Shown: piece by piece, positions 9,011 through 35,849 of the stretch | How positions within the stretch are numbered: the stretch's first letter is position 1 | How the letters are laid out: every line of letters starts with the position of its first letter | Source of the DNA: Amphiscolops sp. MND2022 | Lineage: Eukaryota | Direction of reading: 5' to 3' | Assembly (NCBI GenBank): GCA_964187785.1 | Contig: OZ076409.1 | Coordinates: forward strand, 45,942,001 to 46,006,000 | DNA: 64,000 bases | The notes under the pieces: generated by a model | The model's database searches: none | What the model was told of the DNA's origin: nothing | Seen by the model: only the letters and a program-made list of their open reading frames with translations | Program-made: the position numbers and the translations under genes

Positions 9011-10519
9011 ACCAAGTTCTGACAATCTGAAAAGTATTCAACTCACTTCGAAGTATGCAAACTTTTTAGCGACAGTTGAATTGAGGTAGCGTTTACATCG
9101 CCGGAAAACTAGACAAGTAAACTAGGTATTTTTTGATTTTGTTGCTGAAAAGTTTGCTAGCTCTTCATTTCAGCTGTAACCTTGTCCTCTGAAACTTTGC
9201 CTCAATCTTCTTCCTTCAAAACTTCACTCCCCCATTTTTGCTGCTGCCTCAGCAGAAACACCAGGCTGAAAACCACCCGCAAGATTTGAACTTTGAATCA
9301 CATTATCGTTTTTGTTTCTCAAAGCACCCAAAACCTATAGCGAAAGCCATAACTACATGCGCAACTCTGGAATTACATCTGTTTTGATAGAAGTTTAAGC
9401 ATTGTCTTCTCCTAATTATAATCTTGCAGAAGTACTTATATAACTTTTGCAGGTAACTATGTCACATTCCTTTAGAATGCTACTGTGATCATTAAAATCG
9501 ATGATTGAAAATTGGAATTCGCTGAGTCAATTTAAACCCATAAGATTATCTTTTCACACTACTTCCAAAAATTTTTCGACAAAACAGAGCATGCATTTTT
9601 AAAGATTTCACTTCAACTCTACCCATTTGCATGGAAGCCATCTGCTCATACACTTATTCAATATATAGAGTTTTGAAAATCATATATATCAGAAATCCAA
9701 GTGTAATTGTGCTTGTAATACAATAACACGATCTTCACAAAAAATCATGTCTTTTCTTTACAAGTTATATGGCCAACAAAGTCTCCTTTTCGTGCGGACA
9801 TTGAGCTTTTACGTATGTCACTGGAAAGCTGCCTCGGTGTATTTGCCACTATAGGTTTTTTCAGAACGTTTTGAAAGAAAATACTGACCGTAATTAGGAA
9901 AATACTCATTTTGAGCTTTACGGGAGGTGGTGGTTTGAAACACAGGCTGTGTATGAATCGAAAGTTACGAACTTGCCATGTTTATCAAAAACATCATTAT
10001 CTCATTTTACTTTAATGACTTCAAGTTTTTCATATACCACTTTTTACTATCAGATTTGAAGTTCAGCTCCAGTCACAGCCATGTGATTTAAATCGGCAGA
10101 TCCTGAAAATCACAGATGTCGAGATTCGACACGTTTCTGTTAGCAAATTCATAACATTATGTCTTCACAGCACTATTTTTCAATTCCACCTATATGAATT
10201 TACAATGCTGTGGAGATGTCCGGGAGTGTGGCATAACCTGGAAATTATCAGGCGTCACAAACTTAACAAACTGTTCATTTGCATTAGATGTCTGATTGTC
10301 TCAGCCTAGAGCTTCGGTTGGAACCCGTTAGAAGCGATGAAGGCAAAAACGCTTCAAACCACTATTAAAACATTTGTTTTTCAAATCGTTTTGTAATATG
10401 AAACTGAAGTCATGTAAATTTATGAATGATATCTTGGTAACTGCAACGTTCTTTTGTATCCAGTAATGATACACCTAATATTTGTGAATAATGTTGATTT
10501 TACATATATTTGAGTGAGA

Positions 10520-11310
10520 AGTGTATACTACTTGTTTACCAGCTACATTATGTTGTTAGCTATGAAACGAAAAAAACTAATGCTGTATTTTGTTCATATC
10601 ATAATACAATACAAGTTTACCATTTTCGAGAAATTAAGTGAGTTTTTTCAAGAACATGATTTTTCAAAATTGTTCGTTCATGCTTATGTAGTATATCGTG
10701 AACTCAAATGGTCATAGAAAGTGTGACTCGTACTGTATGTCACTGATTTCCATTGAAAATCAATACTACGGTTTAAACAGAGTAATGCAAGCAACAGCCA
10801 TTCAGAAAAAAAAAGAATCATTTGTGCTTTGCTGGATCATATGTTCTTTGCTGGATCATAAGTATGATGTCATGCATAAACTTAATTATTAAATTGATAA
10901 TATAACGAGGCACTATTTTTGAATAGAGTGTAACGATGATAAAAGAATGATTCCCTGAAAAAAGCTGTCATGCAACTAAAAATAGACCCTACAAAAATGA
11001 GAAGAAAACGCTTCAATTCTTTCCTTTTAATCTTTTGCAGAAATTAGACCAACCTTTTCTATCCTTCTTCAAAGTACAAACTGTGATTAACTTCATCTGC
11101 ACTTCTATGTCATTTAGTTAATTTGGTGAAATGTATGAATTTTTTCAAATCGTTCTCTACATAAAACCTGTTCATTTTCTCAAAATAAAAGAAGTTCTTT
11201 TCACCATCAAAGCAACATATTACTTTAATTGAGAATAAGAGAAACACACGATCAAAGCGAGAGAAAGATAAGTGCTCCAGAAGCAAAAGCCTCACAGAGT
11301 AATAAAACTA
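10520..11310 (+). repeat. Diverged interspersed repeat, copy 1 (copy 2 at about 14250-14930)
   Basis: Shared colinear blocks, e.g. ttgttcgttcatgctt, gtgactc.tactgta, agataagtgct.c.gaagcaaaagc.tcac.g.gtaat. Confidence 0.6.
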
Positions 11311-14120
11311 TGATAGAGACTTGAAAGTTGAACATTTCGTTTTTCCTTTGGTGCGGAGAGGCAGTTTCAAATGATGGTACACAAACAGAGTATGAGATGC
11401 AAGTGTGGACCCCGAGAATGACAGATAAAACAAACAAAGAAATGCTTGAATTGAAAAACAAATGATTGAAAAGATAGGGAAGATGATGAGAGAAATGACG
11501 AACAGCAAAAAATGCAATCAGACCCTATTGAGAGAAACAACGAACAACCTAGTTAAAAAATAGAAACTCTGAAACCTACCATTACAACGCACCAGGTCCT
11601 AGAGAACCAACTTACCACTCTGGAGCCAACATGGAAAACTGTCCTCCAAAATGGACACTCACTGAAACACAGAAAACACTCATCGAACGCTATCAAAACT
11701 CCGAAAAACACATAAACCATACAGCGCCCAAACAACAACTTTCATCATCGAAGGATCTAAACTACTACAGCCACGCCTCACCAAACGGGAGGAGACGAAA
11801 AACTGGCAGGATGCAACCCATCAACCAACAAAAATTGACAGTTTTTACACAACGTTCCGACTCACAGACCCATGACAATAAAGAAAACGAGTCTGAAAAC
11901 GTTCAAAATTTTGTAAGCATCTGAAAGAGAACAAACACCACAGCACTCGTTAACAGAACCTTTTTCAAAAAACAACACTCTACCTCTTCACAACTGAAAA
12001 CCCAACTGAATTTGCATCACCACAAAAATTGCCCTAGTAGATGATCGATCCCGAATCACCTTACCATCAACAAGGAAAAAGAGACATATTTCCAGCTGTT
12101 CTCTTGTCAACGAACAATATTTTAAAAAGTGAAAGGCATAGGTATAATTTTTCAATGGATTTTGAAAAACTTACACTTGACAGTTCAATAGATACCGGAG
12201 CTCTCGCAAGAGCCTTCTCAGAACAAGCTCAGCAAAATCAAAACATTAGCACCGGAAGCTATCTCTGACATATGTTCAGCTCCAATTTTAGAATATTATT
12301 GGCAGCTAACGGACCCTTATAAACACCAATTGGAACAGTCTGTCTGAGTTTTTTTTGGAGTAGCTTCAACGTAATGATAACCCTTTTGAATCTTGTTCTT
12401 GGACTTTGCTTCTCGAAACGAAATACCGCCATTTTATATTTCAGCCAGGGGTTTCAGACTTTTCGAGTTTATCAATGCAACTAAAACTAGAGCACATCCT
12501 TCAAACACAACAATCAACACCACCACTTCCAAAAGCAAAATACACAACCAGGCGAAACGTTACTTAATGCAAGCTTACATTACAATTAACAATTAATTAC
12601 CAATCGGGAAAAACAGTGAGTGCAACAAATATGTTGTAGTCTTATGTGGATTCTTCAACTCCATTATGATTCATGCGTTTCAAGAATTGAGAAAAGTGGA
12701 ATGAAGTAATTTTCTAGATTTTTTCACTAATACCGTGTGTAACTTGCGACGAATGCCACATCTTAGTTATCATGATGCAATTGGCATAGCAACGTCTTCC
12801 GCGCACCTTGGAAAACATGAAACAAACTTCCTAGTTTTATCTCTCAGTACAGTCAACAATAACATAGTGGATATCAAGTATTCAATTGTTTGAATTGCCA
12901 TAAACAACAACAACCAACACTCACCTACCTGAGTTCCGTGTTGGAACTGCCGGTCAATTTAAACTTGTCAAACCCTCAATTCTAACGTTCATCATGCTTC
13001 AAAGAACCGAATTCATAGTTGTGTAGCTCAATGAATTTCCTAAAGTAAACAACAAAGATCAAAAGAATCAGCAATTTTGAATCCCTGCACCTGAATAACC
13101 GGGTGTTCCGACCACATACACACCTATTTTAAAACGAATGTTTGACGAGCTATTGGAGCTATATTCCTTAGAACACCTCAACACACATGACAAAAAATGA
13201 CGTGCCGAATTCCTTGAACGCTTCAACTGGAGTGATACTACACTCATTCTTTTCGATAGCCAAAATTGCGAAGAAATTCCAAGGAAAATGTGATGTCTTC
13301 GCAAGACATAGGTTTGACCTCGGAGCCAACAGCGTAGAGTGTTCACAGTCATTCTTACGCAAACGATGATCGTAGAACTTCATTAGTACGGAACCATGTT
13401 TCATGGTACAACCCTACCTTTTTATAAGTACGCAAGTCCTATCTTTGCAAAAAGGCATAAAGTCGACCTCAGGGAGACTAAACAACCTAATCTCAGAAAA
13501 CTATGTAAATGATAACTGCCCATTTAGCGAACTTCCTGACGCAGCCTAAGTTTTCTGTAGAAAAGAAACTTCCCGTAAACTTGACTTTACACAAGCTTAC
13601 AACTGCTTGCAAATGGCAGACTAACAATCCAGTCAAATTTTTGCATTCTATTTGACAGTTACTCTTAACATACCGACAATTAGCACAAGGACTAAAAGTA
13701 GATGACATTGGATATGCAGCAAAGTTAGTCATAGAACTGTGTACAAACATTCGAGCGGTTTATGAATGCGTACGAAGTGCGGGACCAAATGTATCAATGT
13801 CAAAAAGACTACAAAGCTGTATCGAGTTTCTGAATTGTTATAGAAGTTAAATACCACGACTCTCCGATGAATCCCACCCTTCTTCAATTTTTTAATGGAA
13901 ACCAATGATTCTACATCGCTCTCCAATGATCTTACCACAAGTTTCGCACAACTCAACAAAATTCTCTTGCAGTCGTGCCAAATGGCACTAAAACAGCCAG
14001 TCAAAGACAAACAGCCTATTCTACTGTCGAATGCAAGCTTTACAGCTGCAAGATATGTCATCATGATCGATGCTGACCTTCCACAGAAAATACAATCTAA
14101 AGGAAAAACGTACGCATCAA
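11310..14120 (+). mobile_element. Heavily decayed Gypsy gag-pol relic
   Basis: RT remnants at 13200-13810 (DVFARHRFDLG; TLPFxKYASPIF; KLDFTQAYNCLQMAD; YRQLAQGL; VDDIG) and RNase H start (YVIMIDA...QSKGKTYA). 11390-11500 resembles 26505-26600. Many stops and frameshifts. Confidence 0.8.
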
Positions 14121-14249
14121 GAGCAATTGATTGATAAACTTGTAACACTACACAACTGAAAATTTCTATATCAGTCAAAGCGTTTATTGAGTTCAGACGA
14201 AGCTTTTCTGAGTGAATAATGTTGACTATGCTTGCATTTCAGTTAAAAG

Positions 14250-14930
14250 CGTACTTTATATGTTTACCATTTTCACACAGCTACAATACGTAAGTAACTA
14301 TGAATTGAATAAAATATGCGGTAACTTAGTACAGTAGTGCTTCACGTAAAACAGTACAAAAATCATTTTCAAGATCATGAGTGGGACTTTTCATGAACAT
14401 GACTCTTTAAATTTGTTCGTTCATGCTTGGGCAGTATAACGTGCAAAATAAAAATCAATTGATATCAAGTGACTCATACTGTACGTAACTAAACTTCGAC
14501 TGATGATCAATAATACGGTGGACACAACATAGTGCAAGCAAGAGCCAATAAGATAGCAGATTCACATACGTCGAGCAGGATTCAAATTATAACTATGAAG
14601 TCATGCTTAACTCTATTTAATCAATTGATGATGTAACGGTCCAACCTTTTCCATCCCTCTTTGATGCTCAAACTGTGAATCACTTCATATCAACTTCTAC
14701 TTCACTTCGCTACTTTGGTGAAATGTTTGGATTCCCGAAAGCTGTTCTCAACCTAAAACATGTATATTTTCTTCAACTCATTTGAAATTTTTCTCTCCAT
14801 CAAAACAACATTTTTTTCTAACCGAGGTTGGAAAAATAGAGAAACAAACAATATAGGCGAAAAGAATTAACCTCACTTGAGAAATAGATAAGTGCTTCGG
14901 AAGCAAAAGCATCACGGGGTAATGAAAACA
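14250..14930 (+). repeat. Diverged interspersed repeat, copy 2
   Basis: Colinear with 10520-11310 (same blocks). Confidence 0.6.
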
Positions 14931-15540
14931 TCAATGAGACTCTCAGTAAGTTGGAAAATGTTAGTTCAGTTATCTGCGGAGGAGCAGTTGTCACAGGCGG
15001 CCGCCAGTGATGGTAACATGAATTCTGTCTACCACAACTACCAACTTGCACTACACAACACTCGGGACCTAACTTAAAACTATTATAACAAATAAAACTG
15101 TTCACGATATTGCTATATAATTAAATATGTATATTATAGGCGGATGCTTCTATTATGTGCGTCTTTTTGTAAAAATTGAACATCAAAGCGCACAGGCAAA
15201 TGAAACGTGTTCAAATGTTTTCTTTCCTGTCACCTTGGACCTGGTATCAGTTTCTTTTTCGACTAATCAGAGCGCAGTATTGTTCTCGGTTAGTTGCTGA
15301 AACTTATCAAAATAAGCTCGTACGGCCAAATTAGCTGCTACGCCATTCTCGGCCTTCATGTACATATGTGCTGTTCATAGCTAAGTAAAGGACGTTATGT
15401 CCATTTAGACAGTGATTGGCCGCACCCTCATCAATCAATTACTGAGTTGTACTCTTTGTAGTGCTACGTGGAAACCCACCCTGATGTTTTAAAATTGTAG
15501 AAATTATTAACAAATATGAAGTTGGTCCATCGGATCAGTG

Positions 15541-15900
15541 TATGTATTTTGGCCTTTACGGCCAAAAAATACACATGCAGTGTTGATTACGCGTATGCGT
15601 TGCATCATCAGAACAGGTTTCTTCAATATTGCAGTGGATTTCGCTGACGGTAAATTTGGAACGCGTGCAGCGTATTCCACTAACAGACGCTGTTACGTGC
15701 AGTTGATTCCCTTTTTTGCAGATTTCCTCGCTGTTAATTCCGCTGCAATACATTGGAATCCACTATTAAGTACCTTAAACACACGGATCTTGCAGTGGAT
15801 TCCACTTAACACTGCCGTGGATTCCACTAAACGCTGCAGTGGACTCCACCATTGGCTGTAGTGGACTCCACTGCAATGTTTTAGTGGAGTTAAATGAGTT
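15541..15900. repeat. Array of short palindromes GTGGA(T/C/A)TCCAC plus a hairpin
   Basis: Hairpin tgtattttggcc-tttac-ggccaaaaaataca at about 15543-15573. About 8 palindromic cores, the last four at about 21-22-bp spacing (15792-15872). Confidence 0.7.
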
Positions 15901-16555
15901 CTTTCAAAAACCAACCTACACAAGTTATCAACCATCGAAAAGAAGTTGAGTTCATGTACTTCAGTGCCTAAAAGTTCTTCCGTTTTGTGTTCACTTTCGA
16001 AAATGAGATACGTTTTCAGAATCAGCAAGTGTCACGAAAAGAACGATTCAAAATCTCTTCATTTGGTTGAAAATTATCAATAGTGAGTTTTTGTCAATCG
16101 TTTCATTTTGATACTCGCACCGCTTTACCGCTTTAGTTACACTGTTATTTTTTTCATTCTTTGATTAAATTATAGGGACGTCAAAATTTCACACACAGCT
16201 CATGCGTGTATTTCAGGAAGAACTAGTTTTCATTTTTCATTTGCATCATGGTGGATACCAAAACTACAAATTGAACTACAAGACGAATGATGAATGAAAA
16301 TTAACCTATTGTTCTCAATCAACCCCTCAACTAGATTTAGGTGAAGAAGAACTTGCAAGGGCTCACTGAAATTCATATTCACGGTGTTTTGTATCGGTAT
16401 TATAAAAAAAACATTTGTATCTGTAGCAATACAATATAGTGAGTTAATACAAAATTGCTAGTGAAATTAAAATACAAGAAGTGAAAAATTGAAGGCCCAT
16501 TAACAAAAAGATGATTGTTTTGAAAACGGAAGGAGTGTTCTGACGATTCCATCAG

Positions 16556-16990
16556 TCAAATATCGGCTGGGAATCTGTAATCAAAACGGAGCTGCTCGAA
16601 TGGTAGAATATCCCGTGTAGCTCGAAACACTACAATCTTATCGCCAATTTGAAGCAACTCAATCACTGTGGGCTTAATGTTGGCGCCGTTTGATTTCAAC
16701 TGCGAGTGGTTGGCCAGGCGTCCAGGGCAGCGAATATTTGAGTGAAGAGGACATATCTCTTTGGAGGCATCAATGATTCTTTTAGAGGCAACACTTTTAA
16801 CTTCCAGAATGAACTCCTGCTCCACACCTTCTTTCTGGAGGACCTGGCGTAATGACACGTTCAAATACGCCAAGCCAAGGTAATCCACAAAATTATCATC
16901 CTTTGAAAAATTCTATGTGGCAATCACGCATCTCCCAAAGTTTCGACATTTTCGCTAAACACATTCCAGGCCACAGCTGCGTCTCACATC
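16556..16990 (-). pseudogene. SET domain lysine methyltransferase (PR-Set7/KMT5A-like, transposon-type variant)
   Basis: Reads QLWPGM / FGRCVIAT*NFSKDDNFVDYLG...FILEV...IIDASKEICPLHSNIRCPGRLANHSQLKSNGANIKP...IVVFRATRDILPFEQLRFDY. The RxxNHS and ExxxDY motifs are intact. One in-frame TAG at 16915-16913 and an upstream frameshift. Confidence 0.9.
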
Positions 16991-17129
16991 GTTGCGACAA
17001 CATAATTTGTTCTTCGTAGGACAAATAACGGGCAAGTCCAGCATACCGAAATCACTTGGTCTCAGGTACCTGCGAAGATTTTCTAAATTACTGGTTGTTA
17101 GAGAGAATCAAAACCTGCGCTTTCATTTT

Positions 17130-17579
17130 TTACACGTTCTGGTTCTCATCCTCCAGCGAAGTCCACTTTTCGAGCTGGAAAAATGCCGCCACTCTTGACC
17201 CAAGACAGTTAATAGCAACTTTTCCTGAAACGTGTTCAAAGTATAGCAAGGCCCTGGCTAACTGGTGAGTGTACTTTTGCTGGTCTTGGCGGGCGCGAAC
17301 AGCGTTTCTCACCTCGTCTTTGTCGAAACCTTCAACGTTCGAAAGAACCAGATTCATTTCATGTTTCAGTTTGGCCGTTTTGAAGCAGGGGTTATTGGAA
17401 AGTGGCTTCCGTTCCACGACTTTAGTTTTCATTGTATTTTGATCTTTTTCTTCTGCTTTTTTGCTTGAAACGAAAAGTTCCGCAACAGAATTAACGCGGA
17501 AGTCCGTTTTACCAATTAATTTAACAAAGACTAACTCTGCATTGATTGGACGTTTGTCGTACTTTTCGTATCGAACACA
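17130..17579 (-). pseudogene. Pre-SET linker ORF of the same gene
   Basis: Open frame 17579-17130 (…EVRNAVRARQDQQKY…RVAAFFQLEKWTS…) lies directly upstream of the SET remnant on the same strand. Confidence 0.5.
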
Positions 17580-19684
17580 TTACAAAACACAACTTTCATG
17601 AGCGTGAAAAGCTTATTAAAAATCCTCAAACGCTCCATAGGGGATTTTTCACTGGCCCCCAGTGTATTATTTTTTGTATTAATATTACCTATTTGTATGT
17701 TTCAAAATTTCTGGAAGCTTAAGGTATTTTAATAATTGGTAAAAACAGAGGTTTTTGTATCTACGTTATCATTAAACCTGATACGACTTATACAGATTTT
17801 TAATAAATTGGCAATGGCTAACTTGGTGTGGTTGGTAAGAGCAAATGGCTTAATTTGTGTAAAAAATACTTTCAATGCTTCAACAAGACTTACGGGTACT
17901 TTGTGAACTGTGCGTAATATTGATCCAATCGTGTGTTCCACACAGAGAATGAAGGCGTCGCTCAGTGCTCAGTGGATCTGTCACGATTTGCCCACCTGAG
18001 TGTACCGTGATATTCCGGATGAAACTTTCAAGCATAGGTGGTACCGCACAATCGAACAGGGTTGTGATTATGCGTCGAAAGGATTCCAACTTAGCTTTTC
18101 GTATGTTTAGTCGAAATGTTTTCGTACACGTTGTTGTCGAAGTAAGTAACTTTCGCGCATTTGGATTGGCTGTTACTTAAATTATCCTCACTGCACTGGG
18201 AGCCAAACGGACGCGTCTCGGGTGGCGCATTGAGCTGGAAGGACACCTTGGTCCGGGTTGCATTGCTCTGGGGTGGCACGTTCTGGTGAGGCAGTAAATT
18301 CCGTGATGGGGTCCCTGATGCAAGAGGTTCTCAGGCGGTAGTCAGATTTTGAGCATTCCGCAGTAAATTTTTAAGAGCGTCTATGGACGTGTGTTCAACC
18401 AAGTGCTCGATCGCATCGGTGTTCGACATTCTAGTTGCACTGAACAAACCCTATTCGTGGACCGATGGAATTGGCAAACAAGCTGGCTGACAATACAGGG
18501 ATGCGTCATCGAGAAAATCTGGTGGCCCATTCCAGTCGGTAGATCGTTGATGTGAGTTTTGCACAGACGTAGAAGTCTAGGGTGGACTCAAGAGATATTT
18601 GAAATTTTGTTAGGCATGCTGGAAATATTCATGAACCTAGGTGCACAAATCTTGACGGTGGATTTTGCTGAATGAATCAAAATTACGATGTGAAAAGAAA
18701 GGACTGTTTTGTTTTTAGCTGTTTTGATAAAGCGTTGTTTTACTAAATAGAAGAAGATTCGATTTGGGGGAATGTTATAGTCCCAAACATGTTTAGTTAT
18801 ATCCCCATTGTTATTTGAAGAACTCAGTGGAAGACACCCACGTTCTCGATGAGAATCCAAAAGACGACGAGGGAGTACAAGAGACTAGGAACATCGGGAA
18901 GAACCAAACCAAAAAGAACTAAAACACAAACACAGGAAATAGACTTTTCAACATTGATCCCGAAAACCAATGTTGCAAACAAATTAAAGTATATACCAAG
19001 TGGATTTGATTAGCATATGCAAATACATTAACAATGGATCCCACAAACAATTCTTTCCACATTTGCAAACCAATTCGAAAGGGGTACATTCAGTAACTTT
19101 TCAGTCCAGAATAGATTTAAATTTCTATTGCAGTGGATTTCGCTGTTTTGGAAGGTAATCTTCACCTTGCGCTATGTGGAATCGACTAACGTAATTCATT
19201 AAAAAATAGTGGGTTCCATAAACAAATGCTTGAACATTTGCAAACCATTTCAAAAGTAGTATATTCGGGGTATTTTCCAGGCTACTGGAAATCAGCAAAA
19301 TTTTAAAGATAACGAAGATCTTATATACGTTGTTCACTTCTGAACTAAACAGTTTGATATAAAAACAATAAGTTATAAAACTTTGTTCCAGACAGCTTCA
19401 GGTAGTTCACCATAGAGCATTTTTGTCACAGCTTGTTTTGCAATGTGGGCTTGTTGTGAAGACCTGCTTGTAGAACGCAATTTTCATGCTCAAAAAATCT
19501 TCAAAAGTGTCGCAGCTTGCACTGAGAGGTAGCAGGGTGTTTAAAAAGATCATAAAAATGAGGTCTGTAATTTTTTCAACAGACTTGATTTCAAGATTTT
19601 GTGATGGAGTAGTGGTCAAATATCTATGTAGATTTTAACATCAAGATTTCCAAACTTGTGACATCATCGATTGCGACTCCTAAC

Positions 19685-19933
19685 CTATAGCCAAGACGTT
19701 CTTCTCCTTTTGAAGGATGCTGTGGTCACGTTTAATCGTCTTCTGCATTAATTCGGGGAGTTGTGCCTGGTGTAAAGGTCCAATTGGCACTGCCTTGACT
19801 GTCCCCGTGGAGGCGTACACTGGTTCTTTTGGGTCGCGATAGGTCTTCTCTGGATCCCTTAATCCCAGTTGATGCAGATTGAAAGCTGGATACACATGGT
19901 AACAAAAGGCATTGACAATGATGAGTGGAGCGA
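19685..19933 (-). pseudogene. Exon of unknown domain within the JmjC-SET cassette
   Basis: Pyrimidine-rich acceptor cacttttctctttgaAG at 19935-19934, an open frame (APLIIVNAFCYHVYPAFNLHQLGLRDPEKTY...), and donor G|GTTAGG at 19684. Confidence 0.45.
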
Positions 19934-20229
19934 CTTCAAAGAGAAAAGTGCAAAGTTACGTTTTCTTTTGAAGAAATTACATTAAAATTGTTGAACGTTT
20001 TGAAACCAGAACCATTAAATTCCGTAGTTCACCACCCAGTCCGTGGAACAAATGAGTTCTTTTTTCTACATTATTAGTTCCCATTGATAATTAACAAACA
20101 TTTATTGCCATTTTGACGTCGTCGAGCTCACTGCTGATCTGTTCTTTCAGAAGAGTAAGGTGTTGGCTAGAGAAGTTGGGGCTCCATGATCATCTCAGGG
20201 AATTGAGTTTCCGCTGAAGTTGTCGTATT

Positions 20230-21345
20230 TTAAACTGTAACAGCATAAATACGAACAACTGCAGGAAACACTTCTTCTTCATTTAGTTCCTGCTGACTGG
20301 CCTTGAGTTGGCTATCGACAATCAGAGGGAAATGGGTGACAGCGAGGAAGTTGGAGGCAAAAGCAATGGAGTCCCCCCTTCGTCGCAACAATGTGTGGCC
20401 AGTGTGCAGCAAAAACCAGGATGTCGCCTGTTTCCACCACAAGTTTGTGGACCGCCCTGTCAGAGCATTCAGGTTCCCGAAGGAAGTTCGTCTAAAAAAA
20501 AACGAAATATTATACATTTGAACAAAACAACTGGTTCAATGATTTTGAATCATGTGCTTGATTGATTTTGTGCTCTTCTCAAAATGATACCTTGAGATGA
20601 ATATATTTTCAGTACATGCTCTGAGTACAAATACCTCATTGTGGGGATTTTGCTCCACTTCTCAATGAGCTGCAAATTAGCACTTGTCGGCTCCACTCGC
20701 CAGATCTTCACCCCATGGGCGACAGTATAAAAGGCAGTTGTGCTGGAGAAGTCGACATACGTCGTTTGAGACCAGCAAATAATTGGATGTAGCCTCAGTG
20801 AAAAACCCTGCTACATCCAAACACTCAGCTGCTAGGTGGTCAGCCACACAGTATCGGACAAAATCTGCTACTTGGTCAAACCGTTTTTTATATCACTCCA
20901 AATGTGAAAGGGACCGCCATATTTTCACCACTTGCTATAAAGGTTGAAAAACAGCCTTTTTTGAGAAATATATATTTTTAAAAGAGTCTCCGTGAAAAAC
21001 TTTGTTCAAAAGCTAAAACCGGACCCTAAGCAAAGATGAAAATATGCCTCCAAAGTCATTTTTTGTAACAAGCACTTCCAAAAATCAGAATAAAAGACGA
21101 TCATCTGCTGGAGTTTTGTAATGTTTCACTAAGTCGTTTCGGTATCTTTTCAATGCCACAATGGCTGACGTATTCGATATTGATTTGTTATCATCTATTT
21201 GATCCATCAAGAGTGGTCGCAGATCATTACTTTTCATCGGGTTGATCAAGAGTCAAGGGCTTATGATATATTCTTCAGGGTCTAGAATGACGGTAGATTT
21301 CATCATTTCGAGTACGTATTCAACAGTGATGAACATGAAACCCCC
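20230..21345 (-). pseudogene. JmjC histone demethylase domain (KDM2/KDM7-PHF8 family-like), spliced and degenerate
   Basis: Fragments in order: FITVEYV...MKSNDL...DLVKHYKTPADDR; NYLLVSN/(H>Y)VDFSSTTAFYTVAHGVKIWRVEPTSANLQLIEKWSK; GT-AG intron 20634-20492; TSFGNL/ECSDRAVHKLVVETGDILVFAAHWPHIVATKG/DSIAFASNFL...FP. This matches the KDM2/7 pattern YCLMS..HIDFGGTSVWYH..G.K...PT..NL.L...W...GWIHAV.T..D.LAFGGNFL. Frameshifts and stops present. Confidence 0.85.
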
Positions 21346-22804
21346 GACGCAAACCTTTTGCAGGCTAAAACTGCTGGAGACCACTTTTTTCCTAAAAACA
21401 GTTTCATTTTCTCTGCTTCGGGCGTCTGTTGACAATTGGCTTGCGGAAAAATGTCTATGAAGCTTCAATTTTGACCTCATTGCTTCCAATTGATGTCTAT
21501 CGCCGGTCCCGTTGATGAAATCCTCTTCATCTTTGACAATAACATAAAAATTCAAGATGTTTGAATGGGATTTCATTAGACTCTCTGCGTTTTCTTTCTC
21601 ATAAACCGCACCTTCCGTTTGGGAAATTCTATCTTTGAGGAGATCCTGTGTGAGCCACGGTTGGACGCACCTACAATTGTACATCTCAATCCTCTTAGAA
21701 GATCGCAAATTCTCTTTTTTCGCCAACAGCAAGGCAGAATACCGCCAGGGGATGTCTACAAATGTCTAGATAAGTTTTGGAACCCTCGAGAATCTCTTCA
21801 GTTGTGAGTGTTTCTCTTACATGTTCAATGACATTGGATTTTTTTCAGAAATTGTTGAAGAAATATCCAGGAACCGGCAAAACGAAAATGCAGTATCCAG
21901 AAATAGTGGATCTTGATTGTAAATGGAGCCACCGCCTCTCATGTTCCTGGATTGCAAATTTCTGGGCGCGTTGCAATTCAGTTTTTCCAAGCCTTCGCAG
22001 AGGTGATTCCATGGCTTCTCTATGTATCGGCTTTCAACTAGTTGGGCTATCAATGGAAGCTTGAGCTTGTATGGTGACAGCCCTTTCACCCAGAGAGAAG
22101 CAAATGGATTTGAAAGTATGTTTCTGCCAAGCGTTTGTGAGTGTCGAAATCAAATGTTCCCTTACATCTCAAGAGAATAGCACACTAGTTTAAACTTTGT
22201 CGTAGAAGCTCACAAGACGTCATACGTCATAAATTGACATATATCTCTCTTCGTTTCTCTGATTTATGGCGTCTCGTTTGTCAAAGAAATGTAGATGTAA
22301 AGACTTCAGTACTTTTGCAGCCCACAAGTTGTACCCATCCTCTTTTTCAAGAAGTATCTCGGTCGTCCAAACTCCGTCGTCCAATCTCCGTCATAAAGGT
22401 TCGTGATTGTTCCAAGTTGAGCACTTCTAAGTTATTCTGTTTCAGAAAAGACGGTCTTTCAGATTCGCAGCTGGTCAGATTTTTTTCAAAGCGCTGTATG
22501 CTTAAAGCTTCGTCGGGATGTTTTTCGTTAATTATCTTCTGAGCCACTCTTCTATTATCATTCTCAGTGTTACGCGTTATCATGTATGTAGCGTCTGGGC
22601 AGATTGTTCTGACATCGACTGTGCTTGATGATGCTTCTGTAGACACATGTTGTCTGAAAGGGATCTTCAAAGATGATTGTCTTCCACCGATATCTGAGCA
22701 GCAGGTGGGAGCAAATTTTCATCGCATACATTTATCGGAAGTTGTGAGGGATAAAAACTTGAACGTTCAGTTGAAATTCCAAGGACCAAACGCGTCAAGA
22801 ACGG

Positions 22805-23700
22805 CTACGGCCTGTCACAACTGTATGTAATTTCAACGCCCAACGCTTGTAGTTCTTCTGTCTGGCGGTATAGCCACCCAGATTCTTGGTTACTTAAGAT
22901 AGACGGGCCACAATTTTGTTCCATTGCATATCGACTATCGTTGCCACAAGAGGATGCAAAACAGAAGACAGCTTTGGATAATTGGCCGCTAACTGTGGTG
23001 TTAAAAATTCTGAATGCTAGACGCGTAACCTTAACCCCCCCCCCCAATTTCGCAACTGACATCCCAAATATCAATTTTAAGGCCTTCAAGATGCGTTTTT
23101 GCAGTGAAGATAATGATGCAAACGTCCCTGTTTTCAGTGAACTGACTCGAAATACAGAAGAGGTTCGCTCAGGCTCGCAAATTGTATCAAACATTTTCAT
23201 TATGAGGCTAATGGCTCTTTTGATGTGACGACGTGACAAAAATAGACTACCACTGCCTAAACCAACCGGAACTAGCATTTGTCGACTTGCATTGAGGATG
23301 ACTTCCTTGTTGCCTGTTTTCGTTTTGATCGAAAGGTCGTACCTAAAGCACTCGAAGGAGCCCCTGTCATCCAAAAGAGCCGTGAACAAGTCTTGAATGT
23401 GATTACCGCTTGCGCTCCTTTTCCGCCACGCGCTACGTTTCTCATACTGTTCTTTGGGAATTGTTGCTAATCCGTGAATAGGTATACCATGCATTGTAGC
23501 AAAATTCAAGACTCTGGTCCAAAAAGTTTTTTCAATTGTTCTGTGCCTTTTTTTGAGTTGCATTTGCGTAATATTCATATGTAACTTTTGCTGGTCTTGT
23601 TGAATACGACTCCGGTGTTTTCTGTAGCACTGCCTTTTCAGGGAATGTTAAATCAAGGGGTGTTTTTTCAACCACCTCATGATGAGAAGAAACTTCATTT
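22805..23700 (-). pseudogene. Putative tyrosine recombinase (Crypton-like), catalytically degenerate
   Basis: 257-aa ORF with YR-like motifs in the right order: SGN[H]IQDL..LLDD (box I R>H), IKTKTG (Lys hairpin), SLFLSR, TRLAFRIFNTT (second Arg), ASSCG[N]DSRYAMEQN[C] (box II H>N, Y>C). Each substitution is a single-base change from the canonical residue. Confidence 0.5.
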
Positions 23701-25239
23701 GTAAAAGTAACGAAATTGGGGAAAAATCAGGTGTTGAAAAATTTTGCAACGAATTCTTTTCTCTTTTCGTTCCAAAATAATTCTTTATAGCCCCGCAGAC
23801 TTGAAAGTTTCATTATTTTCGTTGCAACAAAAACAGATGCCTGGGGCTGTCCTTTAATTGGTAAATTCTGAGTAAGATGGTCTTTCTTCAGAGTGGTCCG
23901 TACGACCGATTCAGCAACGGTTGAAGTAATTTTCCTTTGACGAATTTGTAACTTGCGTCTTTTGTGACTTCTGATACGCCTCAATTTAATCCTCAACTTC
24001 AACCTCAAATAAAACTAGTCTTGCAACATATTTCTCATGGTTTTACCGCTCCGCACGCTGTATAAAGATTTCTTCGACACTTTTTTGAAAACTTTTGATT
24101 GCACGTTGAACCAAAACTACAATGTCATGCGTGCGTTTACTAGTAAAAGATAAAAATAGGTGTGACTGTTTCCCAAATCATATGGAAGGTTTTTTCATTG
24201 ATTTTCTCAGTTAGTTTTTGTCTCCACCGTGAGTCGGTCGACATTATATGGACAATTTTCCAGCAATTGATTCAAATGTTTTTCGAACGTGAGTTGACCA
24301 TGAAATGGAACACAGTTCAAGCACAACTGAGTTGCTTTACCTGCTGCTGAGAGTACTCAACTTGGCAAAAAAATACAAATATTAGAGGAAATTTTCATAA
24401 TAGGGTGTAGAAGAGAGGAACGCATCAGGTGTGAGTTGTAACTATTCATAAAGAGTGATTGTAAAATTCCCACTATTCGCCAATTTCTGCATGTTATTTT
24501 TAAAAAGTCTGGGACTTTTTGCTTTTTCCCACACTTTTCAACATGTAGTTTTTGCAATTACAGTAGACATTGGCTAATCGATTCACGTCTAATCCAAAAT
24601 CTCGGGTAAACGAACTAAATTTTCAATCCCCGGCAGTAGCGAACATACTCGCATGTTTTCGTTTTTTCGAATTTTTCGCTGAATGAAAAATTTTTCGCTG
24701 GTCCTACCAACATGCGAATAGCTGATGTCGACGGTAATTAACATAACAAAAAGATTTGAATACAAACCAGAATCCTTCAAATTTAAATGTTTTTGAAGAG
24801 GGACAGCTTAGAATTGAGATACAAACTTTGATTCCAATAATTTCCTATTTTTTGAAAGGTGTGATGGGATAAAGTTAAAATGGTCAAAAGTTTTCCAATA
24901 ACGTGGTCATTCACGTGTTAGTTTGAGAGATACAATACACCGAACCAACCTGAGAAATCCGAAAGAAGAACTTTTATGTTTCATAAAGGTTTCAATCATG
25001 TTTCAACATGAAAAACTGAAAAGAAGACATTTGATATTTTTTATTCAAGTTTCAGCCATGTTTCTACATGCAAAATTGAGAAAAAAAGAAATTTTGAAAT
25101 TTTATTCACGTTTATTGACCTGTTCTTTCACTTGTTCATTTGTTTAAAACAATCAGCTTTCACATAATCAAAAAATTTCACTGGTTTTGAGCGTTAAAAT
25201 CTAATTTGTCATGGTTCAATTGTTACAAGATATCAACGG

Positions 25240-25650
25240 TTTACGCATTTTTCTGACCGTGCAGTAGATTCGCCTTTGGCTTACAGTCAATTCCTCTCGT
25301 TTTGCAGTCAATTGCCAGAGGTGAAAAGTGAAATCGACTGTGCGCCAAAGTGGAATTGGCTGCGAGCCAAAGTGGAATCCACTGTATGCCGAAGTGGAAC
25401 CTACTGCAATTTTCAGCGAATTTCGCAGAAAGTTGAAATAGGATGACGCGATTGTTTCCATTCGGTTGGCAGTGAAAGCAGTGGATTTTGGTGCACGCAT
25501 TCTTGTACTGAGCTAGACATGTTAGTGGAATCCAAAACAGGCTACAGCGGAATCCATTGAAATTCAGTGATATCCATGTTTATTAACACGGCAGTGGATT
25601 TCGGTGACTTAATAGCACAAAGGTGTGCTAACCGACTTTTGACACTGTAA
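25240..25650. repeat. Second GTGGA(A/T)TCCAC palindrome array
   Basis: Repeated agtggaatccac, gcagtggattt and gcggaatccat motifs related to 15620-15900. A single motif also occurs at about 19135. Confidence 0.6.
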
Positions 25651-25949
25651 TGATTATGTTTAGGTGGACTAAGTGTCGATGTAAACATTGGTGGCCTGTT
25701 AAACTTTGTTGGTATATTTAGGACAAGATTACGTCACAAAGCTCTTTTCCGAATCTTTGTTTTCGGATGCAGTTCTATTGATAGTGTCGTGATGCCCTAA
25801 ATTTAGGATGTCATTCTTCATGGGATAAATATAGGAGTTCTCAGAAGGCTCTGACACAGTTTGGAGCGTCTTTACCTGAATGAAAGCTTGCAGAAAAGGA
25901 TTTCAAGAAATAATACACTATTACTCTCTCGCACCAATTTGATGCCTTC

Positions 25950-26840
25950 AACAAAAAAAGACAATTAATGCAAAAAAATCTAGAGAAATGGACGACTTGA
26001 TGTCTGATCTAGATAATCTAGACATAATGACAGGAAGCGAAACCATAAACCCTATTGATTGGAAGATAGCAAAGACAATTGGGGAATTGATAGCCCAATA
26101 TGACACTGAGTCCAACTCTCATCCTAGAAAAAAGTCTTCCCAGGTGAAAGATTTTAGAGATTTTGGTCATGAAAATGCAATTCCTAGACAAGATAGCTCC
26201 CTGAAAATCATGGAAACAACAACAAATGGAATTAATTTGAGGTTGTCTCAAGAAATGGATTCCATGGTGTTCTTGATGCATTCAAAAATTAATAGGAACA
26301 ACATAAACTCTGCGAGAACCGAAAGAGTGATCCCAATGATTCAAAAAATGTGGAGTATGTTGTCTTCAGGAAACAAGGACACTGACTCCTGTTCATAATC
26401 AAAAAACCAGGAACAAGAACTGTATGTCTACATTTCATCTAAAAGACACGGAGGACCTTAGTCCTTACAGCAGTTTCAAATGATGGTAAACAATGCGAAA
26501 ATGAGATGCAAGTCTGGTCCCAGAGAAAGACAGATAAAACAAACAAAGGAACGTCTGAATTGAGAAAAGAAATGAAAGAACAGCTGAGAAGATGATGAGA
26601 GAAATGAAGATTTTTGAAAGAAAGCCATCTGCCTCTAAAAAGAAAACTTACAAACGAACGACTTCAAAAAGAGAAACTCCAAAAAGTATAATTGATGAAG
26701 ACGGTGAACTTGACGCAACTGATAACGATGATCAAGAAAACGATATTCAGTATAATTTTTCCAGGTCCTCTGAAATAAACGAACTTAGAACCCCAATACA
26801 GCATGTCTGCATTCTTCTTGAATTGACATTACAGTAGTTG
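25950..26840 (+). mobile_element. Fragment of a Gypsy LTR/gag N-terminal region
   Basis: ORF MPSTKKTINAKKSREMDDLMSDLDNLDIM... shares its N-terminal pattern with the LTR-borne ORFs at about 2960 and 6795 (RKxRExxMxxDLxxxDI). It is followed by a segment similar to 11390-11500. Confidence 0.5.
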
Positions 26841-27138: not shown

Positions 27139-28157
27139 TGTCACGACGAACGTCATGATTTATTTAACGACGACACGCCCCAGTCGTCAAAAACTGCAAA
27201 TGGAACTCAACACGAACTAAAAACACATGAAAGATGTTAACCGAAACGAACGACCCGCCTATCCAGTAGTCAAATTTCCTAAAACCCATTGCATGCAGTT
27301 TTACAAATAGTTATACAGTGCATCGATTAGTATTTCACGAAAATCATTTCCCATTTTTTAGGCAGTATTCATCAAAACATTTCATTCAGTGGTTGCCAAT
27401 TTCATGTATTGCGTCCATTCAAACCGATAACCAAAACAATAGGATGTCACCAACAACTAGTGCATTGATGTATTTTATATAAAAGTTTTGTATCCATAGT
27501 TACCACCACATTAATCGTAATTAGACGGAGCTAAAACTTTGAAGATTAGAAATGTAATAACAGGTGCGAAAGTGCTGCGAAAGAGATTAACGACGACTGA
27601 AGTTACCAGTCGCCTAACGCACCTTGAAGTGTGACTTGCCAAATCAATACGAAAAACATCGATAAAGTAGACGCAAAGTAATAGGTATTATGTACGCTTG
27701 ACTTGTAATATAGAAGATACTAAACCGAAGTAGAAAATCACCAGTTTAAATTGTGCTACTATTGAGAACAGACGTATCCTACTGGAAATCGAAATTGACC
27801 TTTTACCTTGCTCAGTTATCAATACATTAACATTATTCCAATTCAACAATAATTCAAACCTTTCAAAACTATTTTATTAACTTGAAAAGGGTGAATACAA
27901 GATCTCAGATCCTTAGAGAGACAAGATATGAACAGACAGAAGAAGATGGATATTCTGATAATGAACAAAACGTCAGCGTGGCTGACCACTACTCGGGGAG
28001 ATATTTCAATGAATATAATGATGAAGCGATGAGATCGCAAGAGACGGATCATGAAAGATCCAGGAAAGATCCAGAGCCCTTACTGAGAAAGGTATGAACA
28101 GTAGGGAAGAGAGTGATCCTAACGTCCACAACTTCAGAACGTTACCTCATTCTGACA
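27139..28157 (+). repeat. 5' LTR of element B
   Basis: tgtcacgacg...tctgaca. Roughly 85% identical by eye to 44430-45477. Lacks about 200 bp present near the start of the 3' LTR. Confidence 0.85.
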
Positions 28158-29220
28158 TGGTGACAGGAGTCTCGACGAACTCAATCCCAGCTCCAAATCT
28201 GCAACAACCATGCAGAACTCCCCCATCGCCTGTCGTAGATCACGCAAGAGAACATACCCAATCCATCAACGAACCACAAATGTTTGACGTCATGACGGGA
28301 TTACAAAACTTGCGTACCACAAGGACTGACGGAATGATCCAACCGAAATAATTGCCAAGTCAAGTGTCACTCTTTCGCGGAAATAGAGAAGAGTATAATG
28401 AGTTAGAATACCTACTAAAAAACCACCTCCGCCCACATATGCAAAAACTGACGGAAGAGCAAAAGCTCAACTACTTTCAAAGTCTGCTCAGGGACGAGGC
28501 CATTGAGTTCTGGCAAACCCTGAAGATCCATGCTGAAACGACGCTGGCAGATTATCCTCTAGCCTTCAACAAAGAAAACGCCAAGAAAGACCTCAGAGAA
28601 GTGTCAAAATGCACATTTGACCGAATAAGGTACAATGCAACAGTAGAATCATTCACGGGTTCTCTTACAAAATTCAAAAAAACCGCCAAAAAGGCATACG
28701 GAGAAAAAGCTAGCGACATAGCCGAAACATTTCTGTTCGCTATACTACCAGTGTCGATACAAAACGAACTTGCCATGGCAGGCAAGCACGACACCACTGT
28801 GGAAGCGATCAAAAAAATTGTACAACGACAATGTCAATATGCGCAACTAATTCCCATCACATCTTGCTTGCAACCCTTGAATCAGGCGTACAACTACCAA
28901 GAGAGACAACAAGCGAACCAACCAGCCTCAACCAACAACTCCGGAAATCCCACAACCACCAAAGAAGTCAAGCGGAAGTTCGAAGGCAACTGTCGCTACA
29001 GCAACATTGTTGGCCATAAATGGATCGAGTGCCGTAGTAGACTCAGAGATGAAGCAAACGGCACATACACAAAACCCAACAACGTCCACAACAAGCAAAC
29101 AACAACTGCCAACAGCATCAATCCGACAAACCACAGTACAACTCCAAGCTGGTATGCCAGATCTGTGGGAAAGTCGAGCACTTAGCACGAGATTGCAGAA
29201 ACAGAGTACCAGGAGCTTCA
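28094..29220 (+). pseudogene. Gypsy gag
   Basis: ORFs 28094..28351 and 28352..29185 are in frame across one TAA. Capsid-like LNYFQSLLRDEAIEFW. Knuckles CRYSNIVGHKWIEC and, after a frameshift, CQICGKVEHLARDC. Confidence 0.85.
28158..28170 (+). other. Primer-binding site (tRNA-Leu-like)
   Basis: TGGTGACAGGAGT immediately after the LTR, one mismatch from the complement of the common tRNA-Leu(CAG) 3' end (TGGTGTCAGGAGT). Confidence 0.7.
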
Positions 29221-29779
29221 GCCTATAGAAACGTACCCTACAAGAAACAGTCGACAACATAGAATCGATAGTTCTGTAGGGATTTCAAAAAATTCCAGAA
29301 TAATGGACAACCAGCTTACCAAGTCACACAAGCAACCGAGAAGCCAGCAAAAACCCAAATCCACAACGACTGCTATGACGTGGAGTACAATGGCGAATTC
29401 GAAGCGAATTCAAAAAACTTGTGAAGCCTTGTCATCCTACAATAAACCAGACAACAAGTGCGCGCAACAAACTACAGACTAACAACCACTACGACTGTAC
29501 GACCAAGACGTCAGAATGTCGGCAGAATACCGAAAGAAGGTCTCAACCCTCCAAACGATACTACGTTCGAAAGGTGGCTCACAACAATTATCACATCCTT
29601 CCTATTGTTGACGACGACGATACCTGCACGACTAATCAGTGTACTCAGACCGAAAACGACGATGACGCCAAACGGAAACGGAACATGAAGACTCACCCCA
29701 CAGGCAACCCAGGTTGACCATCCAGCCAAAGCAGAGAAGAACAACCACAAGAACAACTATCCCAAGACAAACACACACA

Positions 29780-32119
29780 TCAGACCGTTGAGGCACAGAG
29801 GCAATTCAGAGCGCAATGTCTGAGAATGAGCTCATACGAATACTCCAAGCACACCTAGCAGCCCAACTTGAATACCCAGCCCCGGCCATCAAAGTTCAAA
29901 TTGCCAAAGGAAGTATCGTAACAGTACGAAAACAAGTCCATCTGCGTTTTTTCATTGGGGGAAAAGTGTTCGAAGAGACATTCATGATCTTGCCTACAAT
30001 GAGTGAAATCCTAATTCGAATGTCCTTCTTCAAAAAATACTGTGACCCTGGACCTTGCAAACAGCATTGTACGATTCTTAGAGATTACCTTCCAGCTCAA
30101 ACCACCAAATGGAAAAGTCAAAATACAAATGTTGGAGCTCAGGGCATCACAGAAGACAACCATTGCACCCAGAAAACAAGTCTTTATTCCCGTGGTGGCT
30201 GAATGGGACATTGTCACTTTAACAGGCACAGTAGAATCGTTTCCGGCATTCGAACGCAAGACGGAACTACTAGCGTTCCCATCGTTGTCCGAGATGCAGG
30301 AACAACAGAGCCATGTCCAAGTTACCAACCACCTGGACCACGCAATAAAAGTCCCCTAGAATACAACACTTGCAGTATTCAAAATACTAACTCCAAATCA
30401 GGCCAGAAACATACAACCCATGACCAAGGAACAACTGACACTGATTTCCAAATTCCCTGATGAAGCTCACAACGTGATCAACAAGTTGTTCCATCGCAAG
30501 CAACCACGGACAAGCGATGGTACCCAACACCCGAAACATGCGACAACCCTGAAAAACTCAACAAAAACGTACGTCGGATATACGACGGAATCATAAAACT
30601 CCGAGAAGCTGAAAAGCTTGATCCCACATTTGACGACGATCAACGACAGACGTTCCTCAAAAATTTCAGCTGGGACGAGCAGGAGCAACAGAGGGTTGAA
30701 TCACTGCTAGTCAAGTACCACATGATTTTTGCACGTCACCATTTGGACATCGGCATCAACACCGAGTTTAAGATCAAGCTAACGCCTAAACATAATGATC
30801 CTGTGTACGCGCAAATTTTACCCACTCCAACTAACTTGAAAGATGACTTACTGGTTGAACGGGCCCTGATGCAGGAGTACGTGATCATCACAACACTTCC
30901 GATCATCACACTTGCCCGATATTTGCGCAGCGGAAGCCCCATGGCAAACTTCAAATACTAGTCGAGTTGAGACGCATCAACCACCTCCTCAAGACGAGTT
31001 TAACCAGCACAACCACCCAGTTACTACAATAGCAGATGCGGTCCAACACATGGCAGGCAAGAAAAACTTCTGCAAGCTCGATTGTTGGCCTACCACTGCC
31101 TCCAGATGGCCGACGAATAATAAATCCAACTTCTTGCATTCAACTTTGGCAGCAGAACCTTCGCATACCTCCGACTAGCCCAAGGGTTGAACAGGTCACT
31201 GTTAGCGGTCAACAGTACGATCCAAGAGTACCTTGACGCACTAGTGAAAGCAGACAAAAATGCACAGTACGTTGAAGACATCACTGCAAACAACGTAAAC
31301 GAGCTGGTAGACAACAATGAGGCAGTGTTTCAGCAGATTCAAAAAGCAGGACTGAAACTCTCAACATCAAAGTGCGCCTTTGGACACCCTAAGATTGAAT
31401 TCCTGCGTCGAAGCATAGCGAACAAAGGCATCACACCACTTGAGGGCCGCATCGAATTCCTCAAAACAATGTTGCCAACATCAGTCAAATCACTGCAGCG
31501 ATACATATGATTCGTCCAGTTTTACAGACAGTACATCCCGAAACTAGCCAAAAAACTTGTAGCACTGTACAATTGTTGCAGAAAGATGTCAAATTATTAC
31601 TAACACAGATACACAAGGAGGAGACTTTTGACATCAACGAGAATCTGGCACGAGCTGCAAGATTGTCCCTCAGGTTACCAATACCCGAAAAATAATTCGT
31701 CATCTTGTGTGATGAAAGCGAACACGCAGCGGGATACGGACTTTTCATCGAAGACTACACAGAGACGAACGACGGAAACAAGAAATCGTATGCACCTGTA
31801 GCGTTCGGTTCCCAGAGATTCACTGACGGTCAGATGTACTAACAACGTACGCGAAAGAGTTGCTGGCCTCGATGAATTTGCACACATTTTGTGGGGAGTC
31901 AAAAAACCCACAATTGTGATGGCTGAAAACAAAGCATTGACACGCTTCTTTCAGTCGAAACGAATCCCGCCTAAACTGTGGAACCATTGTGACCAAGCAC
32001 TGCAGTTTGACTTCGTGCTGGCCTATGTACTAGGGGTAGAAAATCCAGCAGCAGACTACTTGTCTCCACTTGACATCAACCCCGAAGAAAGGATTCATCT
32101 GAAACTCAACAACCAGATT
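29780..32119 (+). pseudogene. Gypsy pol: protease, RT, RNase H (frameshifted)
   Basis: Protease remnant (GTEAIQSAMSE, decayed DTG; FMILPTMSEILIRMSFF). RT (IFARHHLDIG; FCKLDC; YLRLAQGL; QYVED, decayed YVDD). RNase H (LCDESEHAAGY; APVAFGS; ENPAADYLS). Confidence 0.9.
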
Positions 32120-35816: not shown

Positions 35817-35849
35817 TGCCAAAACCACCACATAGTTTGTTTACTTAGC

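Follow-up and report, generated by a model that had tools for sequence, protein, structure and literature searches.

The locus examined here raises the question of how a degenerate JmjC histone demethylase domain on the minus strand of contig OZ076409.1 of Amphiscolops sp. MND2022 (assembly GCA_964187785.1) came to lie where it does, i.e., whether it is what remains of a host gene or was brought in by a mobile element. The analysis covered a stretch of 64,000 nucleotides (contig positions 45,942,001 to 46,006,000, henceforth called the window), and all coordinates are positions within this stretch. An original prediction, made from the sequence alone, had recognised a JmjC domain at 20230-21345 and described it as a captured, stripped-down enzyme, while the element around it, its SET and ELM2 neighbours, and the transposase-like gene were overlooked.

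The JmjC domain and its decay

The domain was resolved into the following parts:

20635..20933, minus strand: JmjC exon 1, HxD His replaced by Tyr, Asp and GVKIW Lys retained; interrupted by a stop and two frame changes; 5' boundary drawn by eye only
20492..20634, minus strand: JmjC intron, 143 nt, GT-AG, called from splice signals and base composition
20230..20491, minus strand: JmjC exon 2, with the distal His, a frame change in the G-run 20378-20373, the C-terminal helix region, and the stop 20232-20230

Judged by its similarity to proteins of known structure, the minus-strand JmjC domain of the KDM2/KDM7/PHF8 type is real. Comparison of its core (20550-20810, minus strand) with the PDB yielded matches to PHF8 (E 2.5e-4) and KDM2A (2.7e-3), followed by KDM7A (4.5e-3) and PHF2 (0.04), with chains of the KDM2/7 family making up the top 13 of 17 matches; identity to PHF8 was 20 of 55 aligned columns (~36%). 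Exon 2 gave weak independent signals, namely a match to the Pfam model JmjC_2 (E 0.1), a match to the Cupin_8 chain 8a82 in which WPH was aligned (E 0.95), and the segment DSIAFASNF, which aligned to PHF8 as a second, sub-threshold stretch. No Pfam JmjC model exceeded its cut-off in any single frame of the unstitched fragments, the JmjC_2 match being the best, and the domain was therefore stitched from colinear fragments; the whole frame P0001 had no match in the PDB. The hidden, spliced domain thus stood up to comparison in part, as a pseudogene that stays below the Pfam cut-offs.

The 143-nt intron is credible at the position originally proposed (20634-20492): the donor reads AG/GTATTT, 13 of the 15 nucleotides before the acceptor AG are pyrimidines (which places it in the top 1.1% of 3333 minus-strand AGs), and GC content is 0.29 in the intron vs 0.47-0.49 in the exons. 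Three of the four ligands are intact and their order HxD..K..H is kept. The first His reads Tyr (TAT, 20759-20757, minus strand, aligned with the HxD His at residue 247 of chain 3kv4_A), as had been claimed, whereas the Asp (GAC, 20753-20751), the 2-oxoglutarate Lys of GVKIW (AAG, 20708-20706, aligned), and the distal His of WPH (CAC, 20395-20393) remain on the same strand, the last two likewise in agreement with the prediction. The retention of Asp, Lys, and distal His in a domain with only 20 of 55 columns identical to PHF8 points to a protein that was long under selection before it decayed.

An open spliced reading frame is absent, owing to three frame changes within about 0.56 kb and a stop. 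Of the several single-nucleotide indels that had been proposed, that in the G-run 20378-20373 alone is evidently a 1-nt change. The stop is an in-frame TGA (20895-20893, minus strand) in the putative 5' part of the domain, and HMMER gave no match for this 5' part of exon 1. The distance from YLLVS to the Tyr is only 7 nt, where KDM2/7 proteins have about eight codons; a larger deletion would therefore abut the Tyr, which makes a His-to-Tyr change the simplest but not the sole reading of this residue. The copy in the window is a pseudogene without a function of its own, and the word enzyme does not apply to it, given the three frame changes, the stop, the Tyr at the first iron ligand, and neighbours in a comparable state of decay.

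Searches for intact JmjC relatives recovered only P0002, which covers the transposase part, and P0003, on a 28-kb ENA contig. The latter is near-identical to the JmjC of the window (193 of 196 compared residues), is equally broken, agrees with it in the Tyr and in how the frames relate, and could represent an allele or the very same locus. The CAT codon looked for in other copies was thus not recovered, no His-bearing copy was found by these searches, and the ancestral His is not observed, since the sole other JmjC copy found shares the Tyr; for the same reason the Tyr is not an obvious sequencing error. Its presence in P0003 would agree with a living pseudo-enzyme, in which the Tyr was selected for and the JmjC, no longer catalytic, serves as a methyl-histone decoy. 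We find this reading hardly credible in view of the frame changes and the stop, of a P0003 so similar that it may be no separate locus, and of the same type of lesion, His to Tyr, in the transposase-like gene described below. As the latter gene is equally decayed and its own DxxH His has also become Tyr, the Tyr of the JmjC copy is best read as decay.

The insertion and its empty site

The JmjC pseudogene lies within a discrete insertion, delimited by the following features:

14990..26468, minus strand: 11.5-kb insertion whose flanks rejoin into one match to the paralogue; without terminal inverted repeats (TIRs) beyond GT..AC or TGT..ACA
14983..14989, plus strand: left junction duplication AGCAGTT, a 5-7 nt target-site duplication
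26469..26475, plus strand: right junction duplication AGCAGTT, a 5-7 nt target-site duplication
10484..11583, plus strand: uninterrupted paralogue of the target repeat, i.e., the empty site, with a single GCAGTT at 11361-11366

The insertion and its junction duplication were observed directly. Comparison of the window with itself showed the paralogue at 10484-11583 to be colinear with 14212-14989 and then with 26470-26693, and after removal of the insert the flanks aligned to the paralogue as one alignment across the junction (556 columns, 70% identity, E 5e-69). The chance of meeting the 6-mer or the 7-mer in a random 16-nt stretch is 0.003 or 0.0007, respectively. The target repeat family occupies 10484-12500 and 13000-14989, with open reading frames at 11553-11924 and 13068-14238 that have no Pfam match.

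With an empty-site paralogue at hand, the JmjC can be assigned to a mobile insert, which speaks against the remains of a host locus. It is very unlikely that the pseudogene represents a decayed host KDM2/KDM7 orthologue or an ordinary pseudogene: its closest matches are of the host type (KDM7/PHF8/KDM2) and it has an intron, as such a gene would, but it sits in DNA that the paralogous site lacks rather than at a host KDM2/7 locus, its upstream neighbour is a multi-copy transposase-like gene, and PHD, CxxC, and F-box domains were absent from the three minus-strand frames of 15600-25800. The last result agrees with what had been noted before, and the description as captured and stripped-down is borne out by the discrete insertion and by the transposase-like, SET, and ELM2 neighbours.

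No terminal inverted repeat beyond 2-3 nt was found at the insert ends. If a 5-nt duplication is assumed, TGT..ACA are the ends of the insert, which then begins with TGTCAC just as the neighbouring long terminal repeat (LTR) does; ends and start together indicate that the outer 600-850 nt of the insert may be a solo LTR. Words from the opposite target flank occur within the insert ends 14990-15020 and 26438-26468 (TGATGGTAA, 9 nt, chance 0.004; CGGAGGA, 7 nt, chance 0.015; noticed post hoc), and they could be target mimicry, remains of a longer decayed duplication, or chance. Inner pairs of TIR and target-site duplication were no more frequent than background (21 candidates in the insert vs 22-31 in three control boxes) and terminal hairpins were rejected as well (left z -0.15, right z -2.0). 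For the insertion site, neither ARAGORN nor Rfam gave a tRNA or Rfam match in the window.

Several other features of the window were recorded. An LTR retrotransposon at 27139-45477 has direct repeats of ~1 kb (27147-28157 and 44430-45477, 87% identical) and a broken gag/RT/integrase region; its first LTR starts TGTCAC like the insert. A stretch nested in it encodes a DUF1759 gag (34458-34775), which we take to be of the BEL/Pao type, and a second Gypsy-like pol region (RNase H, integrase zinc finger, rve) lies at 61444-64000. Rhodopsin-type GPCR exons were found at 313-1205, 8660-9083, and 45648-46078 (7tm_1, E 5.6e-7), the latter two being 77% identical duplicates that resemble GPCR C-terminal exons and have no Pfam match. 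A dispersed repeat with GGGGGACCCTTTG subunits is present in both orientations (2108-2650, 50089-50346, 53431-53917), with 50269-50346 and 53656-53727 as an inverted pair within it. Tandem repeats occur at 32568-32763 (24 nt, 8 copies) and 57614-57926 (32/65 nt, about 10 copies), and an assembly gap of 200 N at 48258-48457.

The transposase-like gene

Upstream of the JmjC pseudogene lies the largest gene of the insert:

21085..23954, minus strand: decayed ~950-aa transposase-like gene with a D, D, DxxH, E pattern and a BRCT-like C-terminus in relatives; about 10 frameshifts and several stops; first Asp motif and DxxH His altered

It accounts for the 225 nt (21345-21121) by which the JmjC domain had originally been drawn too long, and about 150 nt separate its stop from the JmjC exon. 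By eye, its end (21130-21025, minus strand) continues into sequence similar to the N-terminal lead-in of a KDM7-type JmjC, which would imply a fusion; HMMER gave no support for such a lead-in at this C-terminus.

Relatives were collected by searching the open reading frame 22805-23647 against 1.84 billion representative proteins at E<=1e-3. This yielded 90 proteins, including the window's own and one chance match (P0082, a receptor phosphatase, omitted from the cargo comparison and the conservation alignment), to which a family profile search added 11 further relatives. The conservation alignment (99 relatives) was made without P0001-P0004, and the cargo and identity comparison without P0001 and P0003. 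Long members measure 640-1300 aa at 24-56% pairwise identity (n=13). In the window, the family profile runs colinearly through several frames over 23954-21121 and matches marginally at one other place (E 0.01); frameshift-aware alignment to three relatives revealed about 10 distinct frameshifts in 2.8 kb as well as several stops. P0002 is a diverged second copy of the gene (73% identity) with frameshifts of its own.

Among the 99 aligned relatives, the first Asp (DIWGD) is conserved in 74 of 75 and the second (SGD) in 50 of 51, the Asp and His of DxxH in 25/26 and 25/25, and both Glu of ExxExSNH in 13/13. The copy in the window departs from this pattern, with DIWDV at the first Asp motif and a Tyr codon (TAC) at the His of DxxH. 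The two Asp are 80-105 aa apart in 9 of the 11 long members (the other two do not have the first Asp), and 286-309 aa separate the second Asp from the second Glu in all 11. According to the accessible part of PMC1131882, the corresponding distance is 206-214 aa in Transib, 253 aa in RAG1, and 325 aa in hAT, so that the family falls between the RAG1 and hAT values given there. A D, D, E triad is thus present by conservation in the relatives, and its role would be catalytic. BRCT was matched at E<=0.01 in 4 of 90 relatives, one of them above the cut-off, and PDB profile searches with the family returned only a weak match to the BRCT of PARP1. Taken together, conservation pattern and spacing suggest a long-insertion DDE transposase with a BRCT tail.

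Transposase matches to the gene or its relatives were absent from Pfam, NCBIfam, PHROG, and PDB (subsets of 22, 12, and 6 relatives in some scans), including RAG1/Transib among the PDB profiles, and the ESM Atlas gave no usable match. No relatives occurred in GTDB genomes, phages, or plasmids; pattern matches in GTDB (37 and 44) were not confirmed in any case. A tyrosine recombinase, including the Crypton type, was rejected as the identity of open reading frame 22805-23647 (no Pfam match in the window frames or the 90 relatives, which show D/D/DxxH/E instead). The zinc motifs of the CMCT clade are not conserved either, with CxxC in 1 and H(3-4)H in 2 of the 11 long members. This lack of any profile or structure-sequence match to a transposase, of CMCT zinc motifs, and of TIRs would fit a non-DDE protein from another mobile or virus-like element that carried chromatin genes. 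We regard that origin as quite unlikely, given the invariant order and spacing of D, D, DxxH, and E, the short target duplication, and an insert in which no virus-like genes were recognised and which found no phage or plasmid match. The DDE reading is retained; with ~100 members, no Pfam or PDB match, and no place in any of the superfamilies tested, the family may represent a gap in transposon classification.

Further coding regions and motif arrays

Downstream of the JmjC exons the insert contains further decayed coding regions on the same strand, and motif copies outside and between them:

16559..16975, minus strand: SET methyltransferase domain, SETD8/KMT5A-like, with two in-frame stops; NHS and FDY motifs kept
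17130..18460, minus strand: broken frames upstream of the SET domain, without a family match
19725..19784, minus strand: ELM2-like motif in open reading frame 19680-19955, weak and below the Pfam cut-off
15630..15890, unstranded: left array of 22-nt units with the palindrome GTGGANTCCAC, similarity to the right array z 5-8
25260..25605, unstranded: right array, built from the palindromic 22-nt unit and located upstream of the transposase-like gene
19126..19186, unstranded: internal palindromic motif copies upstream of the SET gene, of which 19126-19145 equals 15627-15646 exactly

The SET domain matched PF00856 at 16936-16577 (E 1.7e-7, 32 bits vs a cut-off of 22.4), with chain 4ldg as the best PDB match, followed mostly by SETD8/KMT5A, and the broken frames at 17130-18460 are probably the rest of this gene. 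The match to ELM2 (PF01448) is weak (E 0.013-0.031, 16.8 bits vs a cut-off of 21.7). Transposase-like gene, JmjC, ELM2-like motif, and SET form four co-oriented coding blocks, all on the minus strand, and the neighbours of the JmjC are decayed about as far as the JmjC itself. The ligands retained in the diverged JmjC core would fit cargo that was long under selection before all genes decayed jointly. A 151-aa open frame without a credible family match was also observed at the right end of the insert (25943-26398, plus strand), on the strand opposite to the other genes.

The arrays sit 600-850 nt inside each insert end. With at most 1 mismatch, the GTGGANTCCAC unit matched at 8 places (1.5 expected), of which 7 lie in the arrays and the remaining one at 19176; when motif sites were ranked, 18 of the top 40 fell within 850 of the 64,000 nt, seeds having been taken from those same arrays. 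Both array orientations score alike because the motif is palindromic. The 22-nt arrays were rejected as true TIRs, since local alignment of the left to the right array scored 50 and the highest of 60 random pairs 53, and so was a 380-nt inverted repeat (18924-19302 / 25408-25787), whose z of only 1.3-3.3 depended on scoring.

The JmjC, ELM2, and SET regions were matched by none of the 101 relatives of the large gene, i.e., the cargo is not fused to it in those open reading frame predictions, and the linkage of the cargo is seen at one locus only. The main rival to a single element with functional cargo starts from here: a composite nest or passive capture, e.g., one or two DNA elements inserted into a solo LTR, with JmjC, ELM2, and SET as passengers or separate elements without a joint function. 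Besides the relatives, none of which shows cargo, it could explain the LTR-like TGT..ACA ends and the 600-850 nt of unexplained DNA outside the arrays; a second end might lie at 19126-19145, where 20 nt of the left motif recur exactly, and the window is full of nested elements. This reading is nonetheless judged unlikely, as the four coding blocks are co-oriented and closely packed and are all bracketed by the same motif family, as inner TIRs with target-site duplications are absent, and as a chance meeting of three chromatin domains would be improbable.

Proposed function of the element

We consider it rather probable that the JmjC was an accessory gene of a ~11.5-kb cut-and-paste animal DNA transposon that carried histone eraser and writer genes as cargo and used them against its own silencing, the present copy being dead. 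KDM7/PHF8 demethylases remove H3K9me1/2, H3K27me1/2, and H4K20me1, and KDM2 removes H3K36me2; SETD8 writes H4K20me1, and ELM2 binds HDAC1/2. Erasing the marks targeted by KDM7/PHF8 (H3K9me1/2, H3K27me1/2, H4K20me1) would lift silencing, and an anti-silencing role of the JmjC, SET, and ELM2 cargo is probable by analogy. In the preferred reading, the long-insertion DDE transposase with its BRCT tail would have moved the element and made the 5-7 nt duplication. The KDM7/PHF8/KDM2-type JmjC of the intact element would have demethylated histones as an active Fe(II)/2-oxoglutarate enzyme, stripped of the PHD, CxxC, and F-box targeting modules of its host counterparts, and an element-encoded DNA-binding protein may instead have delivered JmjC, SET, and ELM2 to the palindromic arrays. 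There, JmjC, the SETD8-like writer, and the ELM2 co-repressor hook, the latter by recruiting deacetylase complexes, would have reset the chromatin on the element and allowed it to escape host silencing. After insertion all genes presumably decayed together, the Tyr at the HxD position being one such lesion.

A more far-reaching version is possible but doubtful, in which the insert is the relic of an undescribed superfamily of animal DNA transposons. Its hallmarks would be a zinc-free, BRCT-tailed long-insertion DDE transposase that acts independently of TIRs, ends that copy words of the target, and a complete kit for editing histones, made up of an eraser (JmjC), a SETD8-like writer, and a hook (ELM2) and directed to the palindromic arrays of the element itself, with the JmjC possibly fused or spliced to the transposase.

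Comparison with known systems

Among cellular proteins, the demethylases KDM7/PHF8/PHF2 and KDM2A are the best PDB matches and have the order HxD..K..H in common with the JmjC of the window, which differs from KDM7/KDM2A in the Tyr at the first His, its frameshifts, the lack of detectable PHD, CxxC, and F-box domains, and its location inside an insertion. Among mobile elements, the giant Plavaka (EnSpm) elements of red algae with PAG2/PAG3, as described in the accessible part of bioRxiv 10.1101/2025.02.11.637652, encode a DDE transposase with SET and 2OG-oxygenase accessory genes, carry inverted-repeat tandem arrays, and are mostly degenerate. The present insert resembles them as a large, degenerate DNA element with SET and oxygenase accessory genes and repeat arrays; in contrast to what is described there, its oxygenase is a KDM2/7-type JmjC, its host is, to judge by the 7tm_1 exons and the spliceosomal introns, an animal, and its large protein has no Plavaka Pfam match. 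The accessible part of PMC12730594 reports SET in HarbingerS/MuDR and TET/JBP in fungal elements, with the chromatin enzyme proposed to counter silencing. These are likewise transposon-borne, but the enzyme is single and the hosts are oomycetes or fungi, and neither JmjC nor BRCT occurs in that part of the text.

The family has in common with Transib, RAG1, and the CMCT clade, as far as PMC1131882 and PMC12730594 were accessible, that the Glu lies far from the second Asp, that a His motif follows this Asp, and that the duplication may be 5 nt long. PMC12730594 characterises the clade (Transib, RAG1, EnSpm, Chapaev, Plavaka, Lanisha) by the motifs C(2)C and H(3-4)H in the stretch from second Asp to Glu. 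The family differs from these accounts in its spacing of 286-309 aa, its BRCT-like tail, and the absence of the zinc motifs and of CAC..GTG or CA..TG TIRs; the insert ends read GT..AC or TGT..ACA rather than CA..TG, and the true ends may lie further in. Dada elements, according to the accessible part of PMC3706591, have DxxH after the second Asp, no TIRs, a 6-nt duplication, a size of 5-11 kb, target-like words near their ends, and a distance of 176 aa between second Asp and Glu. The insert is similar in DxxH, lack of TIRs, short duplication, size, and target-like end words. It is unlike the Dada of that description in that it does not lie in a small-RNA gene, has about 295 vs 176 aa between second Asp and Glu, lacks CCCC/CCHC fingers among the columns with a conservation of at least 85%, and has its target-like words as direct copies at other distances. 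An element-encoded factor acting on the arrays of its own element, as in our model, is also the principle of VANDAL/VANC, so far as the sources consulted describe it, although VANC is a plant MuDR protein that acts on DNA methylation.

In the full-text literature searched, outside which Repbase Reports and subscription journals lie, we found no description of a transposon that carries a JmjC histone demethylase, nor of a eukaryotic DDE transposase with a BRCT tail; the supplements of bioRxiv 10.1101/2025.02.11.637652 list further accessory genes. The accessible parts of PMC9406493 and PMC6431247 likewise contain nothing on JmjC cargo or a BRCT-tailed transposase. HarbingerS and Lanisha were published in Repbase Reports or subscription journals, and the transposase-like family may therefore already be catalogued.

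Transposons with chromatin enzymes of their own are rare and known mainly from plants, fungi, oomycetes, and red algae, according to the accessible parts of PMC12730594 and bioRxiv 10.1101/2025.02.11.637652. Chromatin-enzyme cargo as such (SET, TET) is thus already known, and JmjC cargo was not found in print within the sources covered. If the preferred reading is true, JmjC together with SET in an animal DNA element would extend the anti-silencing repertoire of transposons to the erasure of histone marks in animals.
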